NCBI GenBank assembly: GCA_965248265.1
Contig: CBDFJF010000001.1
Location: 2,272,001-2,336,000 of the forward strand
Source: Candidatus Latescibacterota bacterium
GTDB taxonomy: Bacteria > Latescibacterota > UBA2968 > UBA8231
Reading direction: 5' to 3'
DNA: 64,000 nucleotides
Shown: piece by piece, positions 1 to 26,772 of the stretch
Position numbering within the stretch: the stretch's first letter is position 1
Layout of the letters: each line of letters opens with the position of its first letter
Made by a program: the position numbers and the translations under genes
Notes under the pieces: generated by a model
Database searches by the model: none
What the model saw: only the letters and a program-made list of their open reading frames with translations
Told to the model about the DNA's origin: nothing

Positions 1-4
1 GATC

Positions 5-3000
5 GTGAATAGGCCGCCTGGCACTCCCTCAGACCTAATAGCCGGCGACTCGGCAGACCGCGTTACCCTGAGTTGGCAGGCCGGTTCCGACGACGCTGAC
101 CCGCCGGCGGAAAGCCTCACCTACAACGCCCGCGTCGGTACGGTGCCCGAAGCAGACGACGTGCTCTCCGGCGCAATCGCTCTGGGCCATGGGAACATCG
201 GCGCCCGCCTGATGCGCGACCTCTCTGGTCTGACCAGTGGTACCTATTACTGGTCCGTGCAGACCGTCGACGTCGGTGGCGCACGCTCCGCCTGGCGCGA
301 CGGTGACCCTTTCATCATCGACACCGTCAATCCTACGCTCGGCGGCTTCTTGTTGAATAAGGATCAGTTTGGATTGGGCCAGACGGTCACCCTGGGACTG
401 TCGTTTCTGGATGAACACTCCGGAGTCAACGCCAACGCCGAGGTTGCGCCGTTGGTGAAGGCCGAAATAGGTGGTACGCCGTTTCCGTTTTCTCAGTTGC
501 TGTTTAGTGGCCGCACCTGGAGTGGTGAACTGGAGGTCACCGCGGACATGCCTTCCGGCGAAGCTGTGTTGTCCGTATCCGGTCTGGTGGACCTGAAGGG
601 CAACTCTCTGGCCGACACGGTCATCGACACCTTTGTCGTTGACACGGATCTGCCGGTCATCGTCGATCGCCTGCCATCAGAGGATGCCACCGGGGTAGCC
701 CAGAGCGCCACAGAGATTGCGATCGGATTCTCCGAAGCCATCGACCCGGCTACAATCACGGTCGACAACTTCGCCGTGACGCGAGCCAATATCCCCGTCC
801 CGCTGAGAATCGAGCGGCCAGCAGACACGTCGGACACGGTCACCCTGATTTTCGAGGAGACGCTGCGACCGGGATCGCTCTACAACGTCGAGGTGTCGGC
901 GGCGATTCAGGATCTGGCCGCGAACCGGCCGGCCGACGCCATTTCCTGGAGCTTTTCCACCCAGATTCCGCAGCTCACGGCGACGGATCCCATGGCGGAG
1001 AGTACCGATGTCCCCCTTGATGATGGCCGTCTGAGCGCCACCTTCGACTCGGGACTGGATGTGTCTGCCCTCACCGACGCCATCGAAATCCTGCGCGACG
1101 AACAGGCGGTCGATCTGCGCGACGACGCCGTCTTCGACACCGAGACCAACACCCTCTCCTTCGAGATCGACGAAGGCCTGTTGCCCGGGAGCCGCTATCG
1201 CGTCGTCCTCTCCGGCCTTTTGGCCGGACCGCTGGGCGCCGTCAGTCAGGGCGATTTTGACTGGCGCTTCACTACCGCGGTGCCGCAGATCTCGAGCCTG
1301 ACCCCCGCCAACGGCGACACCACCGTGTCCGTCGAAGACGACGACATCAGGGCCATCTTCGACCAACGATTGGATCCTGTGGCCGCCCTCACCGCCAGCA
1401 ATATCCGCGTGACCGAGCAAGGGTTGCCGATCGAGACTGACGACGTAGAGTACAATCCCGACACCGGGTCATTGAGCTTTTCACCTGAAGATGGATTGAA
1501 AGCCGGCACGCGCTATGCCGTGACCATTGATGGATCCGTGGGTGGCCTGCTGCGTCAGGAAATCGGTGACTACTCCTGGGACTTCAGCACGGCCGTGCCC
1601 ATGGTCGAGAGTACCGCCCCTCTGGGCGGCGAGATCGTCAGCACCGCCGATCTGACAGCGGCAACGGTTCAGTTTTCCGTGCCACTCGACGACGACCAGG
1701 TCATTCCAGCGAACTTCATTCTCCTGCGTGAGGGCGCTGCCGTTTCGCTGCGAGAAGGAGACCCCGTTGTCCTGGGCCCAGGCCTGTATGGCTTGGCAGA
1801 GACGGATGGTTGGAAGGTCGGCAGCTCCTACGCCATCAGCATTGCCACGACCGTCCAGGGACCGCTTGGCCCAGGGCAGGTCTTGGGGTGGCAGTTTCAG
1901 ACCACCGTCCCCGATACCATCTCCGTGAGTCCTGCCGCCGGCTCGGACGACGTCGATGTGGGCATCTCCGGCATCACTGCCTTGTTCGATGATCTCATCG
2001 ACGAAGGGGCGTTGCAAGCCGAGGGCAATGTCGTCCTCGCGCGTGAAGGGCGTCCGATCGAGATCACCGATCCAATCGGCTACGATCGCGCCGCCGGGGA
2101 GGTGACGATTCCAGTCAGTGATCTCAGAGCCGGAACACCCTACCAGGTGCTCATTGCCTCTGATGTGGCCGGGCCACGTGCGGCCGGAGAATTCCGTTGG
2201 GGGTTCAGCACCCGCATCCCGACTATAGCGTCGACGGTGCCCCCCGATAACTCGTCGATTGCCGCGGGACCTCGCCGTATTCAGCTCATTTTTTCCAGCA
2301 ACGTCGATGAAAGGCTGGCACGCGACCCCGATAACTACCGCCTGACCAGTGGCGGACAATCAATCGAACTGACCGCCGCCGAATTCCTCTACGATGATGG
2401 CAGCTTCACCGTCAGTCTTCCCGAAATCGAATTTTTGTCTGGAACGGGTTACGACCTGATCGTCAATTCCCGTCTGGGCGGACCGCTGGCTCAGCGCCCC
2501 GATGACGAATTCCGTTTCCAGACAGATTTACCGACGGTTGTTGAGACAGAACCGGTCGCCGCATCTGAGGGAGTCGTGACGAGTCATCCGCCCATCAGGC
2601 TGGTTTTTTCGGGCCCCGTGGCCAATCAGGACGCCACCGGGTTTCAATTGCGGGCACGTCCGCTTGCGCAGGCATTGGCAAACAGCGATGCGCCATTCGG
2701 ACTCCTGTCGATCGCAGGGTTTGGCCTGGATCCGACAGGCTCCGAAGTAAACTTCGCTCCTGAAGGCGGCTTCCGACCCTTCACTGAATATCAGGTTCTT
2801 GTGGATCCCAGCGTATTCGGTCAATTGGCCATAGACGGCTTCACCTTGGCCTTCAGCACGGCAGCGCGGATCGGCAATACGGCAAGCGGCGGCACGATTT
2901 CCAATGCGGACCGATCAGTGGAGCTCTATTTCCCTCCGAACGCGCTCTCTGGAGGTGTGGATGGCGAGGTCGTCATCCAGTCGCTTGAGGCAACTGATGC

Positions 3001-3604
3001 CGGCAAGGTGATCACCGTAAAGCCAACGCAGGCCACGCTCACACAGATTGGTCAGGCTTGGGAGATAGACGGGCTGGGAGCCAGCCTGATGAAACCTGCT
3101 ACCCTGACGATGCGCTACACCGATCAGGAACTCGGCAGCCTCAACGCCGCCCGGCTCGGCATATTCAGGCTCGACGGCACCGATTGGGTCCGGATCGGCG
3201 GCACAGCTGATCCAACCGCGGCTCAGGTCCGAACTACAATAGAAGAGTTCGCCGTCTACGCTCTGTTCGAGGACCTCAGTGCCCAGGTCGGCGCTCTCGC
3301 GATCGCCGGCATCGAAGTGCAACCGCAGGCCTTCGCCCCTTCGGGTGGCCGCGGCAACATGCGGCAGGAGACCGATATCTCCTTCGACTTGTCGGGGCCC
3401 GCTGACGTCACTGTACGCGTTTACAGCGCCTCAGGCAGGCTCGAGCGCGTCATCGCTCGGGATACCCCGATGGGGCAGGGCCGCAACTCCCTGGTCTGGG
3501 ATGGGCGCGACGAAGACCGCAAGACCGTGGGCAGTGGCCTTTACATCGTCGTCGTCAGTACCGGAGACGAGCAGGCCGAGAAAGTAGTCGCGGTGGTGAG
3601 ATGA
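5..3604 (+). CDS. Large surface protein (5' end outside window): FN3-like domain, multiple Big_5/SbsA Ig-like repeats, ZU5-like domain, C-terminal FlgD-Ig (T9SS-like sorting) domain
   Basis: Frame is open at the window edge. Repeated 'P..P.......I...F...LD......F.W.F.T' units. C-terminus 'PQAFAPSG..ISFDL...VTVRVYSASGRLER.....WDGRDE....GSGLYIV'. Stop overlaps next ATG (ATGA). Confidence 0.8.
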   Translation: MNRPPGTPSDLIAGDSADRVTLSWQAGSDDADPPAESLTYNARVGTVPEADDVLSGAIALGHGNIGARLMRDLSGLTSGTYYWSVQTVDVGGARSAWRDGDPFIIDTVNPTLGGFLLNKDQFGLGQTVTLGLSFLDEHSGVNANAEVAPLVKAEIGGTPFPFSQLLFSGRTWSGELEVTADMPSGEAVLSVSGLVDLKGNSLADTVIDTFVVDTDLPVIVDRLPSEDATGVAQSATEIAIGFSEAIDPATITVDNFAVTRANIPVPLRIERPADTSDTVTLIFEETLRPGSLYNVEVSAAIQDLAANRPADAISWSFSTQIPQLTATDPMAESTDVPLDDGRLSATFDSGLDVSALTDAIEILRDEQAVDLRDDAVFDTETNTLSFEIDEGLLPGSRYRVVLSGLLAGPLGAVSQGDFDWRFTTAVPQISSLTPANGDTTVSVEDDDIRAIFDQRLDPVAALTASNIRVTEQGLPIETDDVEYNPDTGSLSFSPEDGLKAGTRYAVTIDGSVGGLLRQEIGDYSWDFSTAVPMVESTAPLGGEIVSTADLTAATVQFSVPLDDDQVIPANFILLREGAAVSLREGDPVVLGPGLYGLAETDGWKVGSSYAISIATTVQGPLGPGQVLGWQFQTTVPDTISVSPAAGSDDVDVGISGITALFDDLIDEGALQAEGNVVLAREGRPIEITDPIGYDRAAGEVTIPVSDLRAGTPYQVLIASDVAGPRAAGEFRWGFSTRIPTIASTVPPDNSSIAAGPRRIQLIFSSNVDERLARDPDNYRLTSGGQSIELTAAEFLYDDGSFTVSLPEIEFLSGTGYDLIVNSRLGGPLAQRPDDEFRFQTDLPTVVETEPVAASEGVVTSHPPIRLVFSGPVANQDATGFQLRARPLAQALANSDAPFGLLSIAGFGLDPTGSEVNFAPEGGFRPFTEYQVLVDPSVFGQLAIDGFTLAFSTAARIGNTASGGTISNADRSVELYFPPNALSGGVDGEVVIQSLEATDAGKVITVKPTQATLTQIGQAWEIDGLGASLMKPATLTMRYTDQELGSLNAARLGIFRLDGTDWVRIGGTADPTAAQVRTTIEEFAVYALFEDLSAQVGALAIAGIEVQPQAFAPSGGRGNMRQETDISFDLSGPADVTVRVYSASGRLERVIARDTPMGQGRNSLVWDGRDEDRKTVGSGLYIVVVSTGDEQAEKVVAVVR

Positions 3605-5067
3605 TGGGGCTTGTGAAGCATCGTCATGTATTCGTTGCCTCGGCGCTCATCGCACTATGCCATGCCCTGCCTCTGCAAGCCCAGACTTTTTCGAGCCCTG
3701 CAGCTGCGGCCAATGTGGCTGATGGCGGAGCCTTCAGCACCAATTCCAGCTGGGGCGATTTTGATGGTGATGGCGATATAGATGCTTACGTGACCAACTG
3801 GGTATCGCTACCTAACCCACTATACCAGAACAACGGCGATGGCTCTTTTATCGACGTTGCAGAGGCCAAGGGTGTCACTGACCTCGGTAACAGTGTGGCA
3901 GCTGCTTGGGGCGACTACGACAACGACGGCGATCTCGATCTCTATGTGGTCGACTTCCGAGTGCAGGATCAACTATTCGAAAACACAGATGGCAGTTTCG
4001 CCGAAATCGGCCGTACCCGCGAGCTCATCAACCTTATTAAGTTGGGCAGTGAAACCTCGGTTGCCTGGGGTGATTACGACAACGACGGCTTCCTCGACCT
4101 CTACCTGGGCAAGTATTACCACGACAACGAGCTGTACCACAATTCGGGCGACGGCAGCTTCGAACCCGTGACCGACCTCGGTGTTGGCGATCGCCGCGAC
4201 ACCAACGGGTTCACCTGGGTCGATTACGACAACGACGGCGATCTGGACCTTTATGTCGTCAATCGCGACCAGGAAAACGGCCTCTACCGCAACGACCTGA
4301 GTGATGACAGTGTCTTCACAGAACGTGCGTGTGCCCTGTCCGTAGCCAACACGGAAATCGGCCAGAACGGCACCTGGGGTGACTACGACAACGACGGCGA
4401 CCTGGATCTGTTCCTCGCCAATGTCGGGGCCAACAACCTCTACCGTAATGACGGCGCCGAGAGCTTCGTCGATGTCGCCGACGCCGCCGGCGTGCGCCAG
4501 GCGTCGTCGGGCTGGATCACGGCGATGGCGGCATGGGCCGACTACGATGGCGATGGGTTTCTCGATCTGTACACAGCCAACGGCGGCGACGAGCTCCAGC
4601 AGGAAGATGTGCTCTTCGCCAGCAACGGCAACGGCACCTTCCGCAACGCCACCGCGGATGCGCTGCTGTCCACGGCCGGCAGCGCGCATTTGTCGACTAC
4701 CTGGGTTGACTTCGATGGCGACGGCGCACCCGATCTCTACAGCACTGATGGCTGGGGATTCGGCAACATCCTTTCACTCAACGAGACACCCGACGAACGC
4801 TTCATCAAAGTGACCGTGCGCGGCAAGGGTGCTGCTGCCGGAGGCAACAACATCTTCGGCATCGGATCGCAGGTGCGGCTCTTCGATGCGGAGACCGATG
4901 CCCTCGTCGCCTACAGGCAAGTGCTGTCGAGCTCCAGCCCGGGGGAGGTGACCTTCGGAGCTCCAGCGGGACCCTACAACGTCCAGGTTCGTTTTCCCGG
5001 CAATGAAATTCCCATGATCGTCGGCAATGTCAGCGGCGGCGAAAGCATCACGATCGAAGAGCCATGA
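3601..5067 (+). CDS. Secreted FG-GAP/CRTAC1 (ASPIC-UnbV) beta-propeller protein
   Basis: Signal peptide; seven W(G/V/A)D(Y/F)D(N/G)DG..D..Y/F Ca-binding repeats; C-terminal 'N.FGIGSQVRL' ASPIC/UnbV-like segment. Confidence 0.85.
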   Translation: MMGLVKHRHVFVASALIALCHALPLQAQTFSSPAAAANVADGGAFSTNSSWGDFDGDGDIDAYVTNWVSLPNPLYQNNGDGSFIDVAEAKGVTDLGNSVAAAWGDYDNDGDLDLYVVDFRVQDQLFENTDGSFAEIGRTRELINLIKLGSETSVAWGDYDNDGFLDLYLGKYYHDNELYHNSGDGSFEPVTDLGVGDRRDTNGFTWVDYDNDGDLDLYVVNRDQENGLYRNDLSDDSVFTERACALSVANTEIGQNGTWGDYDNDGDLDLFLANVGANNLYRNDGAESFVDVADAAGVRQASSGWITAMAAWADYDGDGFLDLYTANGGDELQQEDVLFASNGNGTFRNATADALLSTAGSAHLSTTWVDFDGDGAPDLYSTDGWGFGNILSLNETPDERFIKVTVRGKGAAAGGNNIFGIGSQVRLFDAETDALVAYRQVLSSSSPGEVTFGAPAGPYNVQVRFPGNEIPMIVGNVSGGESITIEEP

Positions 5068-8000
5068 GCGCTCGCGTCAACGGCCATCGCCTTCAACGGC
5101 TCCACGACCGGCGCTTCGGCAGTCTTTTGCCGGGTCTGCTGGCACTCGTCATCGCCTCAGCCCCTTTTGCTGCCGAGGCCACTGCGCGCCAGACGGATGT
5201 GGGCGTGCGCGCGATCAGCATGGGAGGCGCCTTCGTCGCTGTCGGATCCGACGCGACCGCCATCTACTGGAATCCAGCGGCGATCGCCGCCTTACAGCGC
5301 CAGGAACTCGACCTGGATTACGCCGATCACTTCGGCCTGGGTCTGAATGAGGCTCATCTGAGCTACGTCCTGCCTGCGACCGCCAACCACGCGCTGGGAA
5401 TTGATTGGTTCCACCGCGGCTTCGACGATGTCAGCGGCGGACTGGGGCTCAAATCCGGCTTCGACCGCATCTCCTTCGCCTACGGCTACCGCAACGGCAT
5501 CCGGCGGTTGCGTCCCTGGATCGGCAACACCTCCATCGGCATCGCTGGCAAGTACGTGTCGCAGGACACCGACCTCGATGGCCAATCCGTCATGAGCGCT
5601 TCCGGCCTCGGCCTCGACCTGGGAGTACTGGTGCCGCTGCTCCACAACCTGCGTTTGGGATTCTCGATTCAGGACCTGGGCGGCACGTCGGTCGAGCACG
5701 ACAGCGGACTCAACGAACAGATCTTCGACGCCAATTACCGTGTGGGTCTGGCCTACAAACCCCCGATCGAGGGCTTGACCCTTGCAGCCGACATCGATGA
5801 CCATGCGCGAGTCGGCGCCGAGTACTGGATCGCCAGCCAGCTCGCCCTCAGGGCCGGCCTCAAGACCGAGCTGGACACGCCGGAGAGCCAGAGTGATGCA
5901 ACCACGGCGTCCTTCGGAGTCGGGGTCAAGTACCGCTACGCCGAACTTGATTATGCGTATGAACGGCATCCCGTCCTCGACGTCACCCACTATACGTCAC
6001 TGTCGCTTTCCTACAATCCACGGGTGGTGACGATAAAGGATGCCACGGTCCGGCCGAGTCCGATTTTCCGCTCGCTCTACCAGCATTACCAGGAAAACGA
6101 TTTCTTCGACGTCGTCATCGGCAACTCAGCCCCGGAGCCGATCGAGGCGACCGTCGGCATCATGCTGCCGAAGGTGATGACGGTGCCTCATCAGGAAACC
6201 GTCGTACTGCCGGCTCAGAGCACGGAGAAGTACACCTTCAAGGTTACGTTCGACGAAGATCTCTTCAACCAGCCTGAGGCCTACTACGACAATTTCGTGT
6301 TGCCCGTCGTCAGTGTCAGTTATACCCGCGGTCGCCGCGACCAGACCGTCGACAAGCAACTCGAGCGCGTCTACGTCGCCGGCAAGGGCAAACTGAGTTG
6401 GAATGTTGACGGCATGGCTGCCGCCTTCGTAACCCCGGCGGACCTCGCCGTCTCCGGAATGGCTCGCGGCATGATACAGATCTACGACGAGCTCCTGAGC
6501 GGCAAGTTCAACCGCTCCAACATCGGCAAGGCTGCCATCCTCTTCGACGCCATGGGCGTGCACAGTCTGAGTTATCAGGCGGACCAGAAGACGCCTTTCG
6601 CCAATGTTTCCGACGACAAGACGATCTTCGACACGGTGCAGTACCCGAGCGAATTGCTCTACAAGGAAGAAGGCGTCGACACCAAGATCGGCGACTGCGA
6701 TGACCTGACCGTCCTCTATGCCTCATTGCTGGAGAACCTGAGCATCGACACGGCTTTTCTTGAGGCCAATGACCCGGGCAAGGGCCATATCTACCTGATG
6801 TTCGATAGCGGCATCCCCAGCGATCGCGTCGAAGACCACTTTCTCAGCTCGGCGGAATACGTCGCCTGGGAAGGCCGCATCTGGATCCCGATCGAAACCA
6901 CCATGTTCGGGTTCACCTTTGGTGATGCCTGGCGCAACGGGGTGGCCGAATACAAGCGCCTGAAGCCCCTCAAGCTCATCGACGAGGTCTATGTCCAGAA
7001 GTGGATGCAGATCTACAAGCCGGCGGTCTTGCCGCCTGCCATCGTAGAGCTGCCCTCGATGGCAGACGTCGACTCGCTTCTGTCTCGCGATATCGCCTAC
7101 CTGGACCAGCGCACGGACCAGATTGCCCTGAGTGCGGTTACTTCATTGGAGACGGCGGACGGTGCCTACGATGCTGGAGTGGCCTACTTGCGCGCCAACC
7201 ACCTGGAAAAAGCGTTGGGCATGTTCGATCGGGCACTCGGCATGAATCCGAACCACGCGGATGCCATCAATGCCCGCGGCGTGGTACTGACCAAGAGGGG
7301 TTCGTACGACGAGGCGCTGCAACTGTTCAGGCGCGCCCTGGAACTCGACGACAACAACGGCTTCCGCATGAACATCGCCCTCGCCTATTACATGAAGGGT
7401 GAGCGCGAATCCGCCAACCTGATGTTCGAGGGGGTGGTGGCCCTGGATGAATCGTATTCCCAGCTCTTCGACTTCCTCGCTGACGTCGGAGCCGCCGAGG
7501 AATTCTACGAGGTGGGCGTCAGCTATCTGCGCCAGAGCAACCTCGACAAGGCGCTGGAACAGTTCGACCAGGCCGAGGCCGCGGATCCACAGTTCGCCGA
7601 TGCCGTCAATGCCCGTGGCGTGGTGCTGAGCAGAAAGGGGCGTTATCCAGAGGCGCTGGAGCAGTTTGAGCTCGCCGCCCAGATGGATACCGATCAGCTG
7701 GGCTATCGCCTCAATGTCGCCCTGGCTCATCATCTGTTGGGGAACCCGAAGCGAGCCGAGACTCTGTACCGGCAGGTTGTCGCCGTCGATGACGGCTATG
7801 AAGGTTTGTTCGATTTCCTCGAGGCCACTGAGTCGGCTGAGCAGTACTACCAGCTGGCGGCCGGTTACATGCAACAGCGTCGTTGGGACAAGGCGTTGGA
7901 GTATCTCGAGTACGCGTTGAGTGGCGATCCCGAAATGGGGGATGCGCACAACGCCCTCGGTGTGGTGCTGACGCGTCAGGGAGATTACGATGGCGCTTAC

Positions 8001-8174
8001 ACTGCCTTCTCCCAAGCTGAGGCGTTGATGCCGACCAACGCAGGTGTCATGATCAACATGGCGATCGTCCGCTACCTGCAGGGGCGTCGGCACGAGTCGG
8101 CAGTCCTGTACCGGCAGGTTGTGGAGATGGACAGCCGGTACGAGGGTTTCCTCGATTTTCTGACCGTGGAGTAG
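5064..8174 (+). CDS. PorV/UPF0164-like beta-barrel fused to transglutaminase-like domain and C-terminal TPR repeats
   Basis: 'GVRAISMGGAFVAVGSDATAIYWNPAAIA' is a PorV/FadL-type N-terminal motif. 'GDCDD..LYASLLE...GHIYL...WIPIETT' gives a Cys/His/Glu set. About 9 TPR-like helical repeats. Confidence 0.8.
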   Translation: MSARVNGHRLQRLHDRRFGSLLPGLLALVIASAPFAAEATARQTDVGVRAISMGGAFVAVGSDATAIYWNPAAIAALQRQELDLDYADHFGLGLNEAHLSYVLPATANHALGIDWFHRGFDDVSGGLGLKSGFDRISFAYGYRNGIRRLRPWIGNTSIGIAGKYVSQDTDLDGQSVMSASGLGLDLGVLVPLLHNLRLGFSIQDLGGTSVEHDSGLNEQIFDANYRVGLAYKPPIEGLTLAADIDDHARVGAEYWIASQLALRAGLKTELDTPESQSDATTASFGVGVKYRYAELDYAYERHPVLDVTHYTSLSLSYNPRVVTIKDATVRPSPIFRSLYQHYQENDFFDVVIGNSAPEPIEATVGIMLPKVMTVPHQETVVLPAQSTEKYTFKVTFDEDLFNQPEAYYDNFVLPVVSVSYTRGRRDQTVDKQLERVYVAGKGKLSWNVDGMAAAFVTPADLAVSGMARGMIQIYDELLSGKFNRSNIGKAAILFDAMGVHSLSYQADQKTPFANVSDDKTIFDTVQYPSELLYKEEGVDTKIGDCDDLTVLYASLLENLSIDTAFLEANDPGKGHIYLMFDSGIPSDRVEDHFLSSAEYVAWEGRIWIPIETTMFGFTFGDAWRNGVAEYKRLKPLKLIDEVYVQKWMQIYKPAVLPPAIVELPSMADVDSLLSRDIAYLDQRTDQIALSAVTSLETADGAYDAGVAYLRANHLEKALGMFDRALGMNPNHADAINARGVVLTKRGSYDEALQLFRRALELDDNNGFRMNIALAYYMKGERESANLMFEGVVALDESYSQLFDFLADVGAAEEFYEVGVSYLRQSNLDKALEQFDQAEAADPQFADAVNARGVVLSRKGRYPEALEQFELAAQMDTDQLGYRLNVALAHHLLGNPKRAETLYRQVVAVDDGYEGLFDFLEATESAEQYYQLAAGYMQQRRWDKALEYLEYALSGDPEMGDAHNALGVVLTRQGDYDGAYTAFSQAEALMPTNAGVMINMAIVRYLQGRRHESAVLYRQVVEMDSRYEGFLDFLTVE

Positions 8175-8200
8175 AGGATGGCCGGCCGTGGGTGCCGGTT

Positions 8201-8289
8201 TGTGATCTGGGTCATCAGTTTGCTGTGATACCGATCATGTTTGGGCCAGCAAGACAAAAAAAAGTGCGCGGCCTGTGATTTCAATCATA
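8201..8289. promoter_or_regulatory. Three CRP/FNR-family-like boxes (TGTGA-N6-TCATx)
   Basis: TGTGAtctgggTCATC (8201-8216), TGTGAtaccgaTCATG (8224-8239) and TGTGAtttcaaTCATA (8274-8289), versus the CRP consensus TGTGA-N6-TCACA. Confidence 0.6.
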
Positions 8290-8378
8290 TTCAAGGATAG
8301 GGTTGGTGCCGAACTTTAGAGCAAGAGTTGACTACCGCCCTTTCGAGGGCAGCGATGTTCGAGCAGGAGGATAGGAAA

Positions 8379-8888
8379 ATGAGACTGATAACCGGATTGA
8401 TCGTGATCGCATTGGTGGGCTGGACGACGGACGGACTGCTTGCCGAGGAGAGCGCGAGCCAGGAACCAACCACGACCGCATCGACGACCGAGGGTGAGCC
8501 GGATGAGGAGTGGTTGAATACCGTCTGGACCCAGGTTGACGATATGGTCAAGCAGGAGTCCCTGGAGCTGCAGAAGACGGTCACCGTGGCCGGTGTGCGT
8601 GGCGCCGAGGCCGAGGATTCGATCCTCGACAAGCTCTACTACAAGGGTGCCAAACGCTATCCCAGTCAGGACAAACTGCGCAAGGCCGTCGACTCCTTGA
8701 AGCAGGCTCTTGGCAAGGCTCCCAAGGGTCCCAATGCGGCTAAGCAGAAGTTTTTCATCGCGCAGTGCTATGAGAAGCTCGGGCAGACGGAGACCGCCAG
8801 GGATTTCTACGGACAGGTCGCCTCAGATCATCCTGAGAGCAGTTTTGCCGAGAAGGCTGGCAAGAGGGTGAGCGCGCTACAGCCGTAG
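8379..8888 (+). CDS. Secreted TPR protein with 'TVAGVRGAE' motif
   Basis: AGGAGG RBS at 8365-8370; signal peptide; C-terminal CpoB-like TPR 'FFIAQCYEKLG...A...Y..V...HP.S.FA'. Confidence 0.75.
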   Translation: MRLITGLIVIALVGWTTDGLLAEESASQEPTTTASTTEGEPDEEWLNTVWTQVDDMVKQESLELQKTVTVAGVRGAEAEDSILDKLYYKGAKRYPSQDKLRKAVDSLKQALGKAPKGPNAAKQKFFIAQCYEKLGQTETARDFYGQVASDHPESSFAEKAGKRVSALQP

Positions 8889-8915
8889 ATCGCTTCTGCG
8901 AGTAAAGGAAATCTT

Positions 8916-8953
8916 GGGCCGGTTGGAGGAAGTTTCTCCAGCCGGCCCTTTTT
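8916..8953 (+). terminator. Intrinsic terminator
   Basis: GGGCCGGTTGGAG / CTCCAGCCGGCCC stem followed by TTTTT. Confidence 0.75.
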
Positions 8954-8986
8954 GTTAATCTACTTGTCTCTCATGGCAATGAACTT

Positions 8987-11722
8987 ATGGCGATAAGTAC
9001 TGACAGAGACTCACTGATCCAACTGGCGATTGGCCCCCTCGTCGCGCTGGTGATATTCACCCTGAGCTTCACCAAGGCGCTGGAGCGGGCAGAGCTGCTC
9101 AGCTACGACTGGCGCTTGAACGTGCGCAACAACCTGTTCGGGCCGCCCGTCATGGATCCCCGGTTGGGCACCATCGACATCGATGACAAGAGTATCGAAT
9201 CGGAAGGGCGTTACCAGGACTGGACCCGGGACAAGTACAAGGACGTCGTCTCAATCCTCAGCCGCTTCGGGGCGTCGGCACTTGCCTTCGATGTTTATTT
9301 CACCGAGCCCTCGGCTCGGGTGATCTCTGAGAGCCAAGTTGCGGCCTGGTCCTCCATCGACAGCACCTCGTTGAGCAACCTGTTCCGCCAGGAGGACCAC
9401 GATCGCAGCTTCCAACGCTCGATCACGCGAGCCCAGAATGTCTACCTGGCCCAGTTCACGGTGATGGGAGACGATGACGTGCTGCCGCGTACGCCAGACA
9501 AGGAGGCCGCCCTTTCCTGGCTGAGAGACAACGCTCCGCGTATCGCTGATCCCGAGAGCAGTACTCTGTCCCGTATTATCGATTTCACCCCACCCTTCCA
9601 CACCCTGCGCGATGCGGCCCGGGGCTTCGCCTTTGCTCAATCCATCGCCGATGTCGACGGCGCGCGTCGCCGCTACCCACTCGTTTATCAGTACGAGGAT
9701 GTCCCCTTCCCCTCATTGGCGCTGGTGGTGGTGTGCGACTACCTCGGCGTGCCGATGACGAACGTCGTCATCACCCCGGGGTTGAGCGTTCACATTCCCA
9801 ACGCCTCCATCTCTGATGGTGTGCGGCGTGACATCGATATCCCCATCGACGACAGCGGCACGATGATCGTCAACTGGACGGGGTTGTGGGACGAAACCTT
9901 TGTCCATTTCCCGCACATCGGCCTCCGTTGGGCTGCCAAGCAGCTTCTCCTCGACCGCATCAAGGAACTGTTCGGGAGCGGCACGAGGAACCCGGGAAAG
10001 ATAAAAAGTCAGCTGAGGTCCGAAGGACACGAAGACCCCGAGGAGAATGGCAACGCGCTCAGCAGCTTCGGCCGCTCCTACGGAATCGAACGGGCGATAC
10101 AGGGTGGCGCCAGCGACGCAGTGGAATTCTGGCGCTCAAGAGGACTCCAGAACCCGGGTGAGGCCCAGATTGGCATGTTCGAGCAGATCGCCGTCAACAA
10201 CAGAGTCGCTCAGTTGCTGGAGACCGATGCGAAAATGACGTCCCAGAATTTGAGGAGCGCCATCGCCGCGGACTCTGCGCAAATCGCCGAAAGCGAGGCC
10301 TACGTGCGTGGACTCCTCGTCGATGACCGCGTCCCCGCTTCCTCCAGACCGCTCTACTACTACCCGTTCAGCGTCTTCGAGGGTAGCGTTCTCACGATGG
10401 CCGACATCGAGGGCAAGATTCTCTTTTACGGGCTGACCGCGACCGGTACCGAGGATCTCAATGTGACACCGTTCCAGGGGGATTACCCGATGGTGGGAAT
10501 CTACCCCAACGTCATGAACACGATCCTGCTTAGTCAGTTTATCCAGCGCATACCGCCGTGGATCGACGCCTTGCTGACCTTCGCCTTCGGCGTGTTGCTG
10601 TCGCTGGTGATTCCACGGCTACGGGTGCTCCTGGGGGCCAGCTTCGTCCTCGTCGTCGTCCTGCTCTATGCGACCATCGCCTTCCTCGCCCTGTCGCATG
10701 CCGGCTGGTGGCTGGATGCCGTTGGACCGCTGGGGACCCTCGTCGTCGGCTACCTGGCAATCACCATATACGGCTACGTGATCAAAGAGCGGGAGAAGGA
10801 GTTTGTCCAGGGCGCGTTCGGACACTACCTGTCCCCGGCCGTCGTTGATGAGATCATGAACAACCCCGACATGATCAATCAGCTTGGTGGAGAGGAACGC
10901 GTGATGACCTCGTTTTTCTCCGATGTCGCCAGTTTTTCGACGATCTCGGAGTGTCTCACCCCCAGCGAGTTGGTAGCCTTCATCAACGACTACCTCAGCG
11001 AAATGTGCGTCATCATCGAGCACTACGGCGGCACCATCGACAAGTTCGAAGGAGACGCCATCCTGGCCTTCTTCGGTGCCCCTGCCGTCCTCGAGGATCA
11101 CGCCATGAGGGGAACTCTGTCGTGCATCGATCAACAGCGCAAGCTCCTCGAGCTGCGAGAACAATGGGCCACCGATCGCTCGTTGCCACCGGCGCTTTAC
11201 ACGCTGTGGGATAACTGGACCGCCCAGGGCCGCATCTTCGCCCACGTACGCATGGGCATGACAGCCGGTCCGATGGTCGTCGGCAACATGGGCTCGCGCA
11301 CCCGCACCGACTACACCATGATGGGGGACACCGTCAACCTGGCGGCCAGGTTCGAGAGCGGCCAGAAGATCTACGGCACCGGCATCATGGTTAACGGCGC
11401 CGTCTATGAGGCCGTCGAGGACGCGGTCGAGGCCCGCAAGCTGGATCTGATTCAGGTCATGGGCAAGGAAGAGCCGGTGACCGCCTACGAGATTCTGGAG
11501 CGCAAGGGTGAGTTGGATTCCACCAAGTCCGAAGTGCTCGAACTCTATAATCAGGGACTCGCCACCTACGAGCGCTTCGAATTCACTGAGGCCAAGAAAC
11601 TGTTCGACCGCGCTCTGCAGATCGACCCCACCGACGGCCCCTGTGCCCTGTACGCCGATCGCTGTGAAGACTTCGCGATCAATCGCCCCGACGATCTGAT
11701 TTTCCGCGCCGAAAGCAAGTAA
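8987..11722 (+). CDS. CHASE2-domain class III adenylate cyclase
   Basis: N-terminal TM; CHASE2 motifs (LSYDW, IDIDDKS, DVDGARR); three TMs; catalytic FSDVASFS, DKFEGDA and YTMMGDTVNLAARFE (K/T specificity residues indicate ATP). Confidence 0.92.
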   Translation: MAISTDRDSLIQLAIGPLVALVIFTLSFTKALERAELLSYDWRLNVRNNLFGPPVMDPRLGTIDIDDKSIESEGRYQDWTRDKYKDVVSILSRFGASALAFDVYFTEPSARVISESQVAAWSSIDSTSLSNLFRQEDHDRSFQRSITRAQNVYLAQFTVMGDDDVLPRTPDKEAALSWLRDNAPRIADPESSTLSRIIDFTPPFHTLRDAARGFAFAQSIADVDGARRRYPLVYQYEDVPFPSLALVVVCDYLGVPMTNVVITPGLSVHIPNASISDGVRRDIDIPIDDSGTMIVNWTGLWDETFVHFPHIGLRWAAKQLLLDRIKELFGSGTRNPGKIKSQLRSEGHEDPEENGNALSSFGRSYGIERAIQGGASDAVEFWRSRGLQNPGEAQIGMFEQIAVNNRVAQLLETDAKMTSQNLRSAIAADSAQIAESEAYVRGLLVDDRVPASSRPLYYYPFSVFEGSVLTMADIEGKILFYGLTATGTEDLNVTPFQGDYPMVGIYPNVMNTILLSQFIQRIPPWIDALLTFAFGVLLSLVIPRLRVLLGASFVLVVVLLYATIAFLALSHAGWWLDAVGPLGTLVVGYLAITIYGYVIKEREKEFVQGAFGHYLSPAVVDEIMNNPDMINQLGGEERVMTSFFSDVASFSTISECLTPSELVAFINDYLSEMCVIIEHYGGTIDKFEGDAILAFFGAPAVLEDHAMRGTLSCIDQQRKLLELREQWATDRSLPPALYTLWDNWTAQGRIFAHVRMGMTAGPMVVGNMGSRTRTDYTMMGDTVNLAARFESGQKIYGTGIMVNGAVYEAVEDAVEARKLDLIQVMGKEEPVTAYEILERKGELDSTKSEVLELYNQGLATYERFEFTEAKKLFDRALQIDPTDGPCALYADRCEDFAINRPDDLIFRAESK

Positions 11723-11868: not shown

Positions 11869-12564
11869 GTGAACGGGTCTTTGAAGTGGTTCTTCGCCGG
11901 CCTCGCCCTGGTCTTCGTCGCCTGCGCGGGTCGCAGCCAGGATGCGGTATCTGCGGCGGATGAGGAAACCGAGCTGCGCAGCGAAGTCGAGGACTTGAAG
12001 CGCGCGGTCAACGCTTCCTACGATCGCGAACGAGCCCTGGCGGAACGCCTCCAGAGCACGGAAGAGAGCAACGCTCAATTGCGCCGCGAGTTCGAAAAAC
12101 AGCTCGGCGAGTTGGGATCGCTGAAGGGTAGACTGGATACCCTTTCTGCATCGTCACCGACACCCATGGCCAGGAGATCATCCGCTGTCGGTGTACCACG
12201 ACGATACGAAGCGGCCCGAGCCCTCTACAACGATCGTCTGTACGACAGGGCGGTAAAGGAGTTCGCGACGATCCTGAGCGGTTCACCCGGCAGTGACCTG
12301 GCTGACAATGCCCAGTACTGGATCGGCGAGTGTTATTATGGCATGGGCAGATTTCGTCAGGCACTGACCGAATTCACCAAAGTCTTCGCCTACCGCAACA
12401 CGGAAAAAGACGACGACGCACAACTGAAGATCGCGCGATGTTACCTCTCCCTGGGCGAAAAAGACCGGGCTCTAATGGCATTGCGAAAACTGATCGACGA
12501 GTACCCGGAAAGTGAGTATGTCGCCAACGCCCGCAGAGAAATCCGCTATCTCCAGGGTCCCTGA
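11869..12564 (+). CDS. cpoB: Tol-Pal associated CpoB/YbgF-like TPR lipoprotein
   Basis: Lipobox FVAC; coiled coil; 'ADNAQYWIGECYY', 'DAQLKIARCY', 'LIDEYPES'. Confidence 0.75.
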   Translation: MNGSLKWFFAGLALVFVACAGRSQDAVSAADEETELRSEVEDLKRAVNASYDRERALAERLQSTEESNAQLRREFEKQLGELGSLKGRLDTLSASSPTPMARRSSAVGVPRRYEAARALYNDRLYDRAVKEFATILSGSPGSDLADNAQYWIGECYYGMGRFRQALTEFTKVFAYRNTEKDDDAQLKIARCYLSLGEKDRALMALRKLIDEYPESEYVANARREIRYLQGP

Positions 12565-12622
12565 GCCTGACGATCCAGTTCGGGAACCGCAGGCGGAGTC
12601 GAGCGTGTTTCCGATACCTGAT

Positions 12623-13252
12623 ATGCAACCCCATCTTCTCATCATCGTTGGCCTGTCAGTTTGTGCCTTGTTGTGCGGCCCTGCACGCGCGGCCACGTTC
12701 ACGGTCACGACCGACGTGGACCTGGTCATACAGGCGGCGTCAGCGGCGGTAGAGAGCGGAGTGGCCAACCTCGACGCCAGCCGCGATAGTGTAACCTGGA
12801 AGTCCCCTCTGCTGGTCGTGGCTCAGGAGAAGCACGAGGCTAACTGGATTATCGAGCACCTATTGATTGAACAGATGTTGTCGCGAGGCACGACCGTTGT
12901 ACTGGATTCCACTGCTATCAGCATGTCCGAGTCCAGGTTGTCCTACCGGATCGTCGACCTCAACATCCGAGGCTCGTCCGGGCTGATGGGAAGCTCCGTT
13001 TCCCGCGAATGCCGTATCACCACGGCCCTGCGCTTGAGCAACGAGTCCGATGGCGCCGTGCTCTGGCAGGATGAGTCCAGCGGCCACCAGGACGACCGCG
13101 TACCCAAGACGCACCTCGACGCTCTCAACAATGACGACTACGGATTTGCCGATACCCGAGTCGAAAAACGCAGCTGGGGAAAAGTCGCCGAACCCGCTAT
13201 CGTTTCGGGAGTACTGGGCAGCCTGGTCTATTTCTTTTTTTCCAACCGATGA
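12623..13252 (+). CDS. Hypothetical exported protein with C-terminal membrane anchor
   Basis: Signal peptide; C-terminal 'EPAIVSGVLGSLVYFFFSNR'; stop overlaps the bamD start. Confidence 0.65.
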   Translation: MQPHLLIIVGLSVCALLCGPARAATFTVTTDVDLVIQAASAAVESGVANLDASRDSVTWKSPLLVVAQEKHEANWIIEHLLIEQMLSRGTTVVLDSTAISMSESRLSYRIVDLNIRGSSGLMGSSVSRECRITTALRLSNESDGAVLWQDESSGHQDDRVPKTHLDALNNDDYGFADTRVEKRSWGKVAEPAIVSGVLGSLVYFFFSNR

Positions 13253-14019
13253 CCACGTCTCTCACCAACACAACACCGGTTTTTGCTCTGTTACTGGCCG
13301 CCTTGCTGGTGGCCTGCGGTGGGGACAAGGTGGCCCCCCTCCGAGGGGTCGAATATTTCTACGGTGAGGGTCAGAAGGCGTTCGAGCGCAAACGCTATCT
13401 GGACGCGATTGAGCACTTCCGCCGCGTCGTCAGCAATTTCCCGGGATCCTCGAGAGTCGCTGACGCGCAGTACTACCTGGCAGAGTCCCATTTCCGGCTC
13501 AAGGACTACGTCAACGCTTCCTTCGAGTACCAGCGTCTCGTGGACGCCTATCCGAGCAGCGAGTGGGCGGCCAAAGCCAAGTTTCAGGTCGGGGAGTCCT
13601 ACTTCCTTCAACGACGGCGATCAGAGCTGGACCAGAAGGAAACACTCGAGGCGATCATCCATTTCAGGAACTTCATCGAAGATTTTCCAGATAGCCCGCT
13701 GACTGAGACCGCCCGCGAACGCATCGTCGAGAGCCGCTCGCGCCTGGCCAAAAAGGAATACGACGCCGCCCGCCTGTATGAGAACCAAGACTACTACGAA
13801 GCGGCGAGGATCACCTACGAAGCCACCATGAGGAGTTATCCCGACACCCGTTGGTACTACGAGTCAAAAGCGCGCCTGGGAATAATCTCAAAAGAAGAGG
13901 GCGACCTGGTGACGACTCGTATGCACTGGAACGAGGTGGTCGAAGAGTCAGCCGATGAGAAGCTGAAGGAGCAGGTCCGCGAATGGCTGCGAGAGCTGGA
14001 TCCTCCGGTCCCGGAATAA
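13249..14019 (+). CDS. bamD: Outer membrane protein assembly factor BamD
   Basis: Lipobox LVAC; TPRs; 'ELDQKET..AI..F..FI..FP.S', 'RLAKKEY..ARLY', 'YPDT'. Confidence 0.88.
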   Translation: MTTSLTNTTPVFALLLAALLVACGGDKVAPLRGVEYFYGEGQKAFERKRYLDAIEHFRRVVSNFPGSSRVADAQYYLAESHFRLKDYVNASFEYQRLVDAYPSSEWAAKAKFQVGESYFLQRRRSELDQKETLEAIIHFRNFIEDFPDSPLTETARERIVESRSRLAKKEYDAARLYENQDYYEAARITYEATMRSYPDTRWYYESKARLGIISKEEGDLVTTRMHWNEVVEESADEKLKEQVREWLRELDPPVPE

Positions 14020-14029
14020 TCAGTCGCGT

Positions 14030-14623
14030 GTGAACGACCGACTCGGAATCGTCGGCGGTACCTTCGATCCCATCCACCATGGGCATCTGCTCCTCGCCCG
14101 TTTTGTGAGCGAGAAGATGGACCTCGATAAGGTTCTCTTCATCCCTGCTGCAACACCTCCGCACAAGGATCACCGCGATGACATCGCCCCCAGCGCCTGC
14201 CGCTGGGCCATGGTCGAACTCGCCCTCGAAGGCATCGATGATTTCGAGGCCTCACGCAGCGAACTGGATCGCCCTGGACGTTCCTACACCATTGACACCT
14301 TGCGCCAGTTGCGCGACGACCACCCCGATGACGAATTCTTCCTCATCGTCGGCACCGATAACACCCATGATCTGTCGAACTGGCACGACCCCGAAAGCAT
14401 ACTGGGGTTATGTACAGTTGTGGCCGGTTCACGGACCCTCGACTCGGGCGACCCCGGGCTCGACGTTATCGGCGCACAAGTCCACGTCGTCGACACCCCC
14501 GTCATCGATATCTCGTCTACGCAGATTCGCCAGCGGATCCGGGCAGGACTGCCCGTACACTCGATGATGCCGGACAAGGTGGCCGCCTACATCCGAGAAC
14601 GGAGGTTGTACTCAGACACATGA
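14030..14623 (+). CDS. nadD: Nicotinate-nucleotide adenylyltransferase
   Basis: GGTFDPIHHGH, PPHK, SYTIDTL and ISSTQIR motifs. Confidence 0.96.
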   Translation: MNDRLGIVGGTFDPIHHGHLLLARFVSEKMDLDKVLFIPAATPPHKDHRDDIAPSACRWAMVELALEGIDDFEASRSELDRPGRSYTIDTLRQLRDDHPDDEFFLIVGTDNTHDLSNWHDPESILGLCTVVAGSRTLDSGDPGLDVIGAQVHVVDTPVIDISSTQIRQRIRAGLPVHSMMPDKVAAYIRERRLYSDT

Positions 14624-15810
14624 GCTTTCTCACCCATCTCGAATGCTCCCGTACCGGCGCTCACTACGACGCCGACCAACTCCACAATCTTTCAGATGAG
14701 GGCGCACCCCTGCTTGCTCGCTACGACCTGGATGCCGTGGGCGCCACCGTTAAACCCGGTGACTTTGCCGGGCGCCGTCCGGACATGTGGCGCTACCGCG
14801 AGGTGTTGCCGTTGCGATCTCTTGATGAAGAGGGTGAGAGCGAGATCATTTCGTTGGGAGAGGGCTTCACGCCTTTGCGCTCTACTCCAAGCCTTGGAGC
14901 GGTGCTGGGCCTGCGGCGATTGTTCATAAAGGATGAATCCGTGAACCCGACCGGCTCCTTCAAGGCCCGTGGCCTGTCCGCGGCCGTGACCGGGGCCGTC
15001 GCCCGAGGCGCGCGCAAACTCGCCATCCCCACGGCCGGCAATGCCGGTGGAGCATTAGCCGCCTACGCTGCCGCCGCCGGCCTCGAGGCTTTCGTCTTCA
15101 TGCCGGCAGACACACCGATCGCTTTCCAGATCGAATGCCGATCGTGCGGCGCCCATCTGGAGCTCATCGATGGATTGATCAACGACTGCGGTGCCATTGT
15201 CGGTCAGCGCAAGGAGGCCGAGGGCTGGTTTGATGTGTCGACGCTGAAGGAGCCCTATCGCGTCGAAGGCAAGAAGACCATGGGCTATGAACTGTTCGAG
15301 CAGTTCAACGGAGTGCTTCCCGACGTCATCCTCTATCCGACTGGCGGTGGCACGGGATTGATCGGTATGTGGAAGGCCTTCGACGAGATGGAACAGATGG
15401 GCTGGATCGACAGCCGGCGGCCACGCATGGTCTCCGTGCAATCCGCTGGATGCGCCCCGATCGCTCGCGCTCTGGAGGAAGGCACCGAATCGGCACGTCC
15501 GTGGGAAAACGCTCAGACCAGGGCCTCCGGGCTGCGAGTGCCGGTAGCCGTAGCCGACTTTCTCATGCTGCGGGCGATCCGAGAAACCGGAGGCTGCGCC
15601 GTCATGGTCAGCGACGAGGAGTTGGTCGAGGCCACCCATGAGATCGCCCGTCATACCGGCATTTTCGCCGCCCCCGAGGGAGGCGCGACCTTCGCTGCCC
15701 TGCGCAAACTGCTCGAACGCAACGAAATCGAAGCGGACGAGCGCATCGTCCTTTTCAATACCGGCAGCGGCTATAAGTACCTGGAGTTGTTGGCTGACCC
15801 GCCGGCTTGA
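14620..15810 (+). CDS. thrC: Threonine synthase (fold-type II PLP enzyme)
   Basis: SLGEGFTPL, NPTGSFKARG and PTGGGTG motifs; ATG overlaps the nadD stop. Confidence 0.85.
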   Translation: MSFLTHLECSRTGAHYDADQLHNLSDEGAPLLARYDLDAVGATVKPGDFAGRRPDMWRYREVLPLRSLDEEGESEIISLGEGFTPLRSTPSLGAVLGLRRLFIKDESVNPTGSFKARGLSAAVTGAVARGARKLAIPTAGNAGGALAAYAAAAGLEAFVFMPADTPIAFQIECRSCGAHLELIDGLINDCGAIVGQRKEAEGWFDVSTLKEPYRVEGKKTMGYELFEQFNGVLPDVILYPTGGGTGLIGMWKAFDEMEQMGWIDSRRPRMVSVQSAGCAPIARALEEGTESARPWENAQTRASGLRVPVAVADFLMLRAIRETGGCAVMVSDEELVEATHEIARHTGIFAAPEGGATFAALRKLLERNEIEADERIVLFNTGSGYKYLELLADPPA

Positions 15811-16039: not shown

Positions 16040-16910
16040 TCATGAGAGTAATGTTGTTTTTCGGGTAGCTCCAACAGGCGGCTGCCCCGGTGTGTGGTGC
16101 TGTTGTGCAAACTGCTCTGGTGTGAGATCGTTGAGTCCACTGTGTGGTCGAATGGTATTGTAGTTCTGTCGCCAGTCTTCGAGGGTACGACGAGCATCGG
16201 CCATGCATGAAAACCAGTGTTCGTTGAGGCACTCGTCTCGGATCTTGCCGTTGAAGCTCTCTACGTACGGGTTTTGGGTGGGTTTTCCCGGAGCAATGAA
16301 GTTGAGACGGACGCCATGCCGGTACGCCCACTCGTCCAGCGCTTTGCCACTGAATTCAGGCCCGTTATCGACCAGCAGCGAGATAGGCAGACCATGAGAA
16401 GTGACAAGCTCATCGAGGACTCGGCACACTCGCAAGCCAGGCAGAGACGTGTCTACCTCACTGGCCAGACAACGGCGGCTGAAGTCATCGAGGACGTTGA
16501 GGACGCGAATGCGTCTGCCATCCGCCAACTGGTCGGACATGAAATCCATAGACCATCGCTGGTTGAGGGCGGTTGCTGGCATCGGCTGACGGCCACGTTC
16601 TTTCGACCTGCGCCGTTTTCTCCGATGAGGAATCTGTAAGTGCTCCTGACGATAAACCCGGTAGATGCGCTTGTGATTGTCCGTCCATCCTTCGCGCCGC
16701 AGCAACAACAACAGACGTCGGTACCCCCAGCGTCGCCGGCGCTTGGCCTGGGTCCGCAGAGCCGCTGCCAGTGGCGCATCCGGGCGGTCCTGCGGTCGAT
16801 AGTGATACGTGCTGCGATGGAGTCCAAGAAGCCCACAGACGCGACGGCAGCTGACCTGAAACATCCCCTGGAGGTGATTCACGGCTCGTCTTTGCGCTGC
16901 GGGCGTTACC
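16040..16910 (-). CDS. IS3 transposase OrfB (rve DDE), probably joined to OrfA by a -1 frameshift
   Basis: WSMDF, DNGPEF and [12 protein letters not shown] motifs. The -1 frame at the orfA end reads [12 protein letters not shown] (AAGAAAC site). Confidence 0.9.
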
Positions 16911-26277: not shown

Positions 26278-26772
26278 TTATTCTCCAGCCCCCGCCTTCA
26301 CCGTCGCCACTATTCGCATCGTGCGCACATCGTCGAGACGCAACTCCGCAGAACGGATCTCGAACTCTCCGGACTCGACCAGAGCCTGTTCTGGCTCAAA
26401 CACGACAGGCAGCCCGAATGGGATGAAGCGATCGAAAAGAAAGCCGTCGCGGTCCAGAAACCGCAGGTCGTAGTTCATTTCCAGGGTTTCATCCACGACG
26501 CTACGAAAGTGAATCTCGAAGGGGCCGACGACCTCTAGCGCACCGGAGGCAGAGAAGTCGAATGCGGTCGGGATCCAGCGCACACTGTCGACGACGACGG
26601 CTTGAGCCAGATCATCATCTTCCCCCGCACTCAGAACGAACTCAGAGGTGAACACGGAATCCCGTGGACCCGTGCTCCCGGATCCACAGCCGCTCAGGAA
26701 CAACAGCATGCCGGCCGCGGCGATTCCCCCACGCCAACAACGTTGCCCTGGCCCGTCGTGTGTCACCCTCAT
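26278..26772 (-). CDS. Hypothetical lipoprotein (start uncertain)
   Basis: AGGAGG-rich RBS; lipobox LSGC; beta-rich mature part. Confidence 0.6.
   Translation of the reverse strand: MRVTHDGPGQRCWRGGIAAAGMLLFLSGCGSGSTGPRDSVFTSEFVLSAGEDDDLAQAVVVDSVRWIPTAFDFSASGALEVVGPFEIHFRSVVDETLEMNYDLRFLDRDGFLFDRFIPFGLPVVFEPEQALVESGEFEIRSAELRLDDVRTMRIVATVKAGAGE

Follow-up and report, generated by a model that had tools for sequence, protein, structure and literature searches.

A candidate trans-envelope cAMP signalling module joining a PorV-like barrel, a transglutaminase-like enzyme and a CHASE2 adenylate cyclase

At the start of a 64,000-nucleotide stretch of a Candidatus Latescibacterota genome (assembly GCA_965248265.1, contig CBDFJF010000001.1, here G000:C1:2272001-2336000; hereafter the window), four genes encode a surface cargo with a C-terminal sorting domain (CTD), a fusion of an outer-membrane barrel with a transglutaminase-like enzyme and tetratricopeptide repeats (TPRs), a small secreted protein that we call the partner, and a CHASE2 adenylate cyclase. 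These genes very probably form one functional unit. We favour the reading that they carry a signal from the outside inwards, across the envelope, to cyclic AMP (cAMP) through an enzymatic step for which the partner is the tethered substrate, and give this reading a probability of about 0.52; that the module runs outside-in as proposed is, taken by itself, close to an even bet. The window lies within a 7.3-Mb genome that is 92% complete, and its close homologues are labelled mostly Candidatus Latescibacterota.

In the favoured scheme, the CTD-tagged cargo would be exported by a SprA-type translocon and held as a surface sensor on its own PorV-like barrel, genomics supplying the pairing, with export and docking proposed. 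The periplasmic arm of the barrel would be an active enzyme of transglutaminase fold, its family and Cys-His-Glu triad being seen in the alignments, its activity and location presumed. Through its LYYK motif the partner is predicted by modelling to bind the first TPR module of this arm, and it may offer an invariant G-x-R-G loop as tethered substrate. Cleavage beside the Arg of this loop appears the likeliest chemistry, because tails fused to related enzymes (cis tails, below) carry Arg or Lys there. The processed partner would alter the activity of the CHASE2 cyclase, as the loss of both functions in one lineage suggests, and cAMP with its receptor protein (CRP) would drive the partner gene's own promoter, closing a feedback loop whose boxes are conserved. 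The features concerned are listed by window position.

1..3604, plus strand: 3′ part of the cargo gene (product about 2100 amino acids), from domain and profile matches (TIGR04183 23.6 bits, cut-off 23)
2876..3274, plus strand: ZU5-like domain of the cargo, from Pfam ZU5 in aligned members and an ankyrin ZU5 match in the PDB
3293..3601, plus strand: CTD subtype of the cargo, from profile bits against 110 CTD-profile proteins
3601..5067, plus strand: 488-amino-acid secreted FG-GAP propeller protein without CTD, accessory, from domain matches and synteny
5064..8174, plus strand: 1036-amino-acid barrel-enzyme-TPR fusion with signal peptide, from profiles, model and alignments
5172-6014, plus strand: PorV/FadL-type 14-strand barrel of the fusion, from profile and model
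6021-6398, plus strand: Ig domain of the fusion
6399-7133, plus strand: transglutaminase-like domain of the fusion (C545 at 6696, H575 at 6786, E611 at 6894)
7146-8171, plus strand: three TPR super-repeats of the fusion
8201..8289, no strand: three CRP-type boxes (at 8201, 8224 and 8274) upstream of the partner gene
8379..8888, plus strand: 169-amino-acid secreted partner with signal peptide, Trp helix, AGVRGAE loop, LYYKG anchor and TPR hairpin
8589-8609 and 8634-8648, plus strand: AGVRGAE loop and LYYKG anchor within the partner gene
8916..8955, plus strand: intrinsic-terminator-like hairpin and T run, a consensus match only
8987..11722, plus strand: 911-amino-acid CHASE2 class III adenylate cyclase with C-terminal TPR

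The initial annotation, made from the window alone, had placed five open reading frames (ORFs) on one strand here, and all five are borne out, as are the ATGA overlaps at 3601-3604 and 5064-5067. Its first gene, said to begin at 5, extends beyond the window: its reading frame runs without a stop for 2155 codons, beginning near window position -2863, and the start of the cargo gene lies about 2.7-2.9 kb before the window. The small gene stands, on the plus strand, with its likeliest start corrected to 8379, behind a GGAGG site.

We followed the linkage of these genes in 60 regions fetched from 88 matches and in 40 loci from outside Latescibacterota out of 80, the synteny counts taking only loci with enough flank and leaving out two pieces of a split gene in genome G105. 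A quick tree, in which long branches meet and which is used only for class separation and for placing one genus (g10, below), separates class I enzymes from class II and NHL-type enzymes. In the 36 class I loci of Latescibacterota the partner is present in 34/34, the ZU5 cargo in 33/33 and CHASE2 in 30/32, and in the 40 loci from other phyla the corresponding counts are 31/34, 29/30 and 17/18. KSB1 and Zixibacteria keep the module order; in Marinisomatota the genes are reordered, with the cyclase first. Failure of the fusion to co-occur with CHASE2 cyclases or the small gene had been named beforehand as evidence against the system; co-occurrence was found in four phyla and persists where the gene order has changed. 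Among 120 sampled genomes of the phylum, 46 have a class I enzyme, 45 of these a partner and 44 a CHASE2 gene, the one class I genome lacking a partner having its locus near a contig end and the two lacking CHASE2 belonging to a single genus (g10); no partner was found without the enzyme in these 120. Presence is patchy within genera, including single-contig genomes that lack all three, and since kin are not independent we take the co-occurrence counts as descriptions, not statistics. In G105:C1 (L073, L074) the gene for the class I enzyme is broken in two, its pieces lying about 37 kb from each other, with partner and cyclase beside the 3′ piece. In Marinisomatota loci such as L145, the gene immediately before the cyclase encodes a secretin (858-2174 in L145).

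A natural mutant bears on the catalytic step. In genus g10 (G078 and G087, loci L055 and L056; 92-93% complete) no CHASE2 gene was found anywhere in the genomes, the catalytic His of the enzymes has become Arg, and the VAGVRGAEAED of the partner reads SAGVPPARQEI, with its aromatic anchor kept (LFFRG/LYFRG). The g10 enzymes have one TPR super-repeat instead of three, and no CRP box was found at these loci. Because the tree nests g10 inside family f1, the g10 state is a loss; just three other full-length proteins among 266, similar to one another and 800 amino acids long, are without the His. As read from these sequences, the co-decay, one event, ties catalysis, loop and cyclase together. That the catalytic His decays with the partner motif points to a catalytic step, not to the passive TPR relay of the initial annotation, which is not supported as it was written. 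The number of TPR super-repeats was also considered as the determinant of coupling to the cyclase and rejected, since enzymes of about 800 amino acids in KSB1 and family f8 keep the cyclase.

The middle region of the fusion is placed by profile matches in the transglutaminase-like (papain-fold) superfamily: among 49 aligned members, DUF553 is weakly matched by 28 and Transglut_core by 22 (E up to 1; best E 3e-6 and 6e-6, respectively). The window's own domain, searched alone, matched neither profile; its paralog at C2:1789829 is over the cut-off, and ESM neighbours agree with the assignment. The triad is kept among the aligned members (C545 49/49, H575 48/49, E611 49/49) and is intact in 259/266 further proteins. 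No sequence relative of the domain was found in the PDB, and in structure searches with the whole model both match lists were filled by barrel and TPR. Joined to an Ig domain, this enzyme forms a family of 3930 clusters at 50% identity. In the best 150 of these, 56 have a barrel, and other Ig-enzymes include fusions with Reg_prop/Y_Y_Y or NHL propellers, with FN3, or with an nSTAND2 NTPase that has a membrane helix. Propeller-Y_Y_Y sensors are fused directly to the same enzyme, an arrangement that gives the propeller the role of input and the enzyme that of output. One protein of the same genome (L004:9834-12545, G000:C2:479831-482515) joins an nSTAND2 NTPase, one membrane helix, the Ig-enzyme-TPR module and a cis tail, an architecture in which the enzyme is predicted to be coupled to a cytoplasmic NTPase.

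The barrel is a member of the PorV/PorQ family but not PorV proper, the general shuttle of type A cargo. Residues 37-317 of the fusion pass the NCBIfam PorV/PorQ model NF033709 (92.7 and 98 bits, cut-off 90) and reach 36.6-43.2 bits with the PorV equivalog NF033710, below its 250; the barrel is fused, not stand-alone, and a PorV-family gene with a better family match adjoins a PorU gene at C1:1897901. Modelled from a 137-sequence alignment, which replaced a single-sequence fold with a predicted local distance difference test score (pLDDT) of 36, residues 37-809 reached a pLDDT of 93.7 and show 14 barrel strands by DSSP, and the top structural match for the barrel in both searches was PorV 6h3i_F (Z 30.6, root-mean-square deviation 2.9, 274 residues aligned). 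Barrels of the PorV family have their N terminus on the periplasmic side. With an even number of strands, this topology would put the C-terminal arm on the same side, in the periplasm. Elsewhere in the genome SprA and three PorU proteins are over cut-off, and there are 13 PorV-family matches at 11 places and 111 FlgD_ig matches.

The cargo consists of a signal peptide (judged by eye), FG-GAP repeats, Big_5 Ig repeats, a ZU5-like domain and a FlgD-like CTD of type IX secretion system (T9SS) type, so that both marks of a T9SS cargo, signal peptide and C-terminal sorting domain, are present. The CTD match is marginal for TIGR04183 and reaches 29.7 bits for FlgD_ig (cut-off 27); Pfam ZU5 was found in 20/30 aligned members, and the best PDB match of the ZU5-like region is ankyrin ZU5 (E 5e-5). 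Among 110 CTD-profile proteins, the CTD subtype is shared only with a paralogous cargo at G000:C2:1784895 (125 and 130 bits), the next C-terminal matches scoring at most 62. These two are also the proteins that combine ZU5 with this subtype, and each lies directly upstream of a barrel-enzyme gene, a pairing result that is partly circular as the profile was built from such cargoes. Their confinement to barrel-enzyme neighbours fits a dedicated shuttle of the kind described for type B cargo of the T9SS (PMC12618676), and the barrel looks dedicated to one cargo type. The initial annotation had also taken the FG-GAP protein for a CTD cargo. The profile scan gave no CTD match for this 488-amino-acid protein, whose gene is missing from many loci (present in 31/35 in Latescibacterota and 6/31 elsewhere), and it is accessory to the module.

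Across 123 aligned partners (an alignment that leaves out g10 and the variants of families f8 and f14), A71, R74, G75 and E77 are invariant. An interface between the TPR region and the small protein had been proposed for modelling at the outset, and with enzyme residues 320-809 plus the partner it scored 0.71, against 0.00 for the best control; the score mark was reached by 116/157 solved and 2/215 mismatched pairs, a benchmark that applies roughly, since our own alignments were used. The runs share at least 82% of contacts, with a partner pLDDT of at least 73. In the model, L86-K89 of the partner lie in the first TPR groove on enzyme N736 and N770, which are kept in 118/137 and 126/137 enzyme sequences, and R74 touches near enzyme residues 560-587. 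The model supports binding of the partner by the enzyme. An AG[VIL]RG protein also follows the barrel-less NHL-type enzyme in 60/76 metagenome loci (4/80 were dropped for short flank), and its neighbourhoods link the small partner more closely with the enzyme than with the cyclase. A suspected link of the GVRG motif to SH3/M48 or FecR operons was dropped, no FecR match having turned up in domain scans of the partner. Loci of families f8 and f14 (L069-L072) are without the 488-amino-acid gene and have longer or tandem CHASE2 cyclases.

The same element probably occurs in cis. A flexible C-terminal tail, like that of the paralog, is frequent among enzymes other than class I. The pattern [KR]x11[FYLN]W is found in the last 45 residues of 39/146 representatives of other enzymes, against 2.3 expected from shuffles; it is present in 11/24 class II proteins and in 0/120 class I and 0/40 NHL-type enzymes. 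Its unselected flanks, G at -2 in 23/39 and A/G at +1 in 33/39, match the G-V-R-G of the partner, and with a profile of 15 barrel-type tails the 12 best-ranked of 325 ORFs from one locus set were all partners, with mixed ranks in another. We consider with moderate confidence that the cis tail is a fusion of the same element as the partner. A second locus of this genome (L003, G000:C2:1781867-1790719) has a partner paralog, two other genes, a Reg_prop cargo ending in ZU5 and CTD, and an ATGA-coupled barrel-enzyme with a cis tail.

The cyclase has CHASE2 between membrane helices followed by a class III cyclase domain, and shows the features of that class. The catalytic motifs that the initial annotation called intact are present as FSDVASF, DKFEGDA and DYTMMGDTVNLAARF, with D646, K686, D690, T777, N784 and R788, among which we take the Asp pair to bind metal and the Lys, Asn and Arg to act as in other class III cyclases. 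It is the genome's only CHASE2 gene; a second membrane cyclase (G000:C2:3897145-3899157, L007) has a related catalytic domain with TPR tail (404 bits) and a non-CHASE2 sensor. CRP-like boxes had been noted before the partner gene, and three are confirmed, each with 1-2 mismatches to TGTGA-N6-TCACA, where the genome frequency predicts 0.046 per 210 bp and 0/5000 shuffles reached three. Sites with at most two mismatches occur at 36/85 distinct partner loci, every one of which has a gap of at least 98 nucleotides, as 53 loci do; the background in this genome is 96/1387 gaps (6.9%). Boxes stand in 17/23 regions upstream of the partner against 1.8 expected; the Marinisomatota gaps are about 25 nucleotides and hold none. 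Three CRP-family genes of the genome are over cut-off, between the partner gene and the cyclase lies a terminator-like hairpin (8916-8948) whose stem has 15 pairs, and a sigma-70 promoter scan found nothing on the plus strand. Since CRP boxes precede it, a terminator-like hairpin follows and CRP-family genes exist, the partner gene looks like its own cAMP-responsive unit in this lineage. Near-perfect intergenic CRP-type palindromes at G000:C1:1496704, C2:548488, C2:1899945 and C2:2629557 mark candidate regulon members.

The alternative that survives best, though we consider it unlikely, makes the partner a pseudosubstrate inhibitor and the cis tail autoinhibitory; cargo engagement would free the enzyme for another target, such as the CHASE2 domain, and CRP induction would be negative feedback. 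It accounts for the same binding, co-decay and cis-tail data, and for a feedback inhibitor its own promoter, with CRP boxes, and a terminator would be apt. The invariance of the Arg (123/123) with its flanking Gly and Glu, and the loss of the loop alone with the His, fit either role; no other conserved target was identified.

Distinctly less probable is an inside-out arrangement like that of LapD and LapG, in which cAMP and CRP set the level of the partner, the partner sets enzyme activity and the enzyme sets retention or release of the surface protein, the cyclase answering another cue. The periplasmic protease LapG, transglutaminase-like and with C-H-D, cuts the adhesin LapA before AG (PMC3032545), an xAG also lies within the partner motif, and cargo and barrel are always adjacent. 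Enzyme and partner, often with a cyclase, nevertheless occur without barrel and without CTD cargo, and the barrel would separate an exported cargo from the enzyme. Slightly less probable again is the non-catalytic relay of the initial annotation, in which a conformational signal would travel from the TPRs by way of the small TPR protein to CHASE2. Contacts modelled with confidence are indeed those of TPR to LYYK, and g10 has lost TPR super-repeats as well; yet the triad is kept in nearly all further proteins, the His is lost where the cyclase is lost, and the short KSB1 and f8 enzymes have kept the cyclase. That the cyclase is a mere co-regulated neighbour of a cargo-barrel-enzyme-partner unit which anchors or cross-links the surface protein in sortase-like fashion is very improbable, for although class II barrel-enzymes neighbour Reg_prop cargo with no cyclase within about 10 kb and CHASE2 genes occur in 21 sampled genomes without a class I enzyme, the linkage survives reordering, the genes are present or absent jointly within genera, the genome already has three PorU sortases, and the invariant residue of the partner is an Arg, which cannot serve as a transglutaminase amine acceptor.

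Several observations weigh against the tethered-substrate reading. The g10 co-decay is one evolutionary event, represented by two genomes with three further proteins, and any shared pathway would relax all its parts together. C545, H575 and E611 are not among the confident contacts of the complex model, and the AGVRG loop is not confidently in the active site; solved structures include many TPR-peptide complexes, and this likeness may lift the model score. In families f8 and f14, VAARR replaces AGVRG. Of the 45 NHL-type loci at least 7 kb long, only 16 show a cyclase, and NHL-type enzymes have no excess of CRP boxes ahead of them (5/35 against 3.9 expected). On the side of the cis tails, 13/24 class II enzymes are without the pattern, the match of tail to partner is short (hhalign probability 60%), the tail profile did not place the window's partner among the top 12 of 27,566 genome ORFs, and L003 has both a tail and a partner gene with no cyclase nearby. 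Finally, GldL, GldM and GldN gave no match over cut-off in this 92%-complete genome, as they gave none in the control genomes either; with SprA, three PorU and more than 100 CTD-type proteins, the genome possibly has a T9SS with a different or diverged motor.

The literature we searched, which did not extend to subscription papers and supplements, holds no description of the module; the one paper found with both CHASE2 and transglutaminase (PMC8195603) has them, in its accessible part, in unrelated contexts. The closest analogy is NsrA - CyaK/CyaD1/CyaD2 - Clr of Sinorhizobium meliloti, where an outer-membrane barrel also acts upstream of inner-membrane CHASE2 cyclases with a CRP-family reader downstream (PMC7529298, PMC13001267). 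As described, NsrA has its barrel in the C-terminal half (residues 600-1200) and senses a foreign protein (PMC7529298), whereas the module's barrel is N-terminal, PorV-type and accompanied by an encoded cognate cargo, a thiol enzyme and a dedicated secreted partner; it is by this described layout only that the two are set apart. With the T9SS shuttles, PorV and the dedicated PorP/SprF for type B CTD cargo (PMC12618676), the module shares a 14-strand barrel of the PorV family and the adjacent encoding of cargo and cognate barrel, but here the barrel is fused to enzyme and TPRs, and a ZU5 domain precedes the cargo CTD. LapG and its family (BTLCP) are transglutaminase-like thiol enzymes, predicted to be periplasmic and linked with a second messenger and with a large protein of the cell surface (PMC3032545, PMC4359373); as there described, LapG is soluble, has C-H-D, is controlled by cyclic di-GMP through LapD and cuts a type I secretion system (T1SS) adhesin, whereas the module's enzyme has C-H-E, a barrel anchor, DUF553/Transglut_core matches and a TPR-tethered partner. 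Peptidase_C93 is absent among the 24 Pfam families matched by any of the 49 enzyme members, and domain scans recognised no LapD or T1SS gene in the locus. Burkholderiales operons of LysM-FecR with CHASE2 histidine kinases (PMC5192318) likewise pair the gene of a CHASE2 receptor with one for a secreted or periplasmic protein; the module differs from them in a partner in which no FecR domain was found, in its cyclase output and in the added enzyme and barrel. PorA - PorXY of Porphyromonas gingivalis shares a T9SS cargo in signalling to an inner-membrane receptor, there a two-component kinase, and the accessible part of that report mentions no CHASE2, cAMP or barrel-enzyme fusion (PMC12152298). 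Apparently undescribed so far, the module is a variant of CHASE2 signalling across the envelope in which the enzymatic core is new.

The input of CHASE2 domains has been described as unknown (PMC5192318), and the accessible accounts of the NsrA pathway name no step between NsrA and the cyclase (PMC7529298, PMC13001267); the module offers two candidates for the step from receptor to cyclase, the enzyme and the 169-amino-acid partner. Residues to mutate can be named (C545, H575, R74, Y87/Y88 and N736/N770), alongside a natural loss-of-function lineage, and the proteins can be expressed in Escherichia coli although the hosts are uncultured. The findings suggest a signalling role for T9SS-type cargo and PorV-like barrels in bacteria other than Bacteroidota, and they give a role to an unnamed enzyme family. 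More tentatively, the data may delineate a widespread and so far undescribed class of periplasmic switches in which the TPR groove of an Ig-transglutaminase-TPR enzyme is occupied by a G-x-R/K-G…YW peptide, either the enzyme's own tail or a separate cAMP-induced protein, and the enzyme processes this peptide when one of many swappable sensors fires (T9SS cargo on a dedicated barrel, or NHL or Reg_prop propellers), the processed peptide being the ligand of these CHASE2 receptors. If so, CHASE2 here would read an enzyme-made protein signal, with a T9SS cargo as the surface receptor.

Directly upstream of the cargo gene and abutting it lies a NusG paralog (L001:16549-17136, G000:C1:2268549-2269136), closest to UpxY (61 bits, below the cut-off of 100) and preceded by a tRNA-like sequence recognised by eye; it may antiterminate the long operon. 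Downstream, in the first 36.5 kb covered by our annotation of the window, 11869-15810 holds genes for a CpoB-like TPR lipoprotein and an unknown 246-amino-acid protein, bamD, a nadD-like gene and a gene for a pyridoxal phosphate enzyme. The cpoB-like gene, bamD and nadD were rejected as parts of the module, being linked to it in family f1 only. Integrase-core transposase genes lie at 16040-16882 and 21700-22899, followed by genes for a TonB-dependent receptor (26664-29171), an aldolase and an FBPase.

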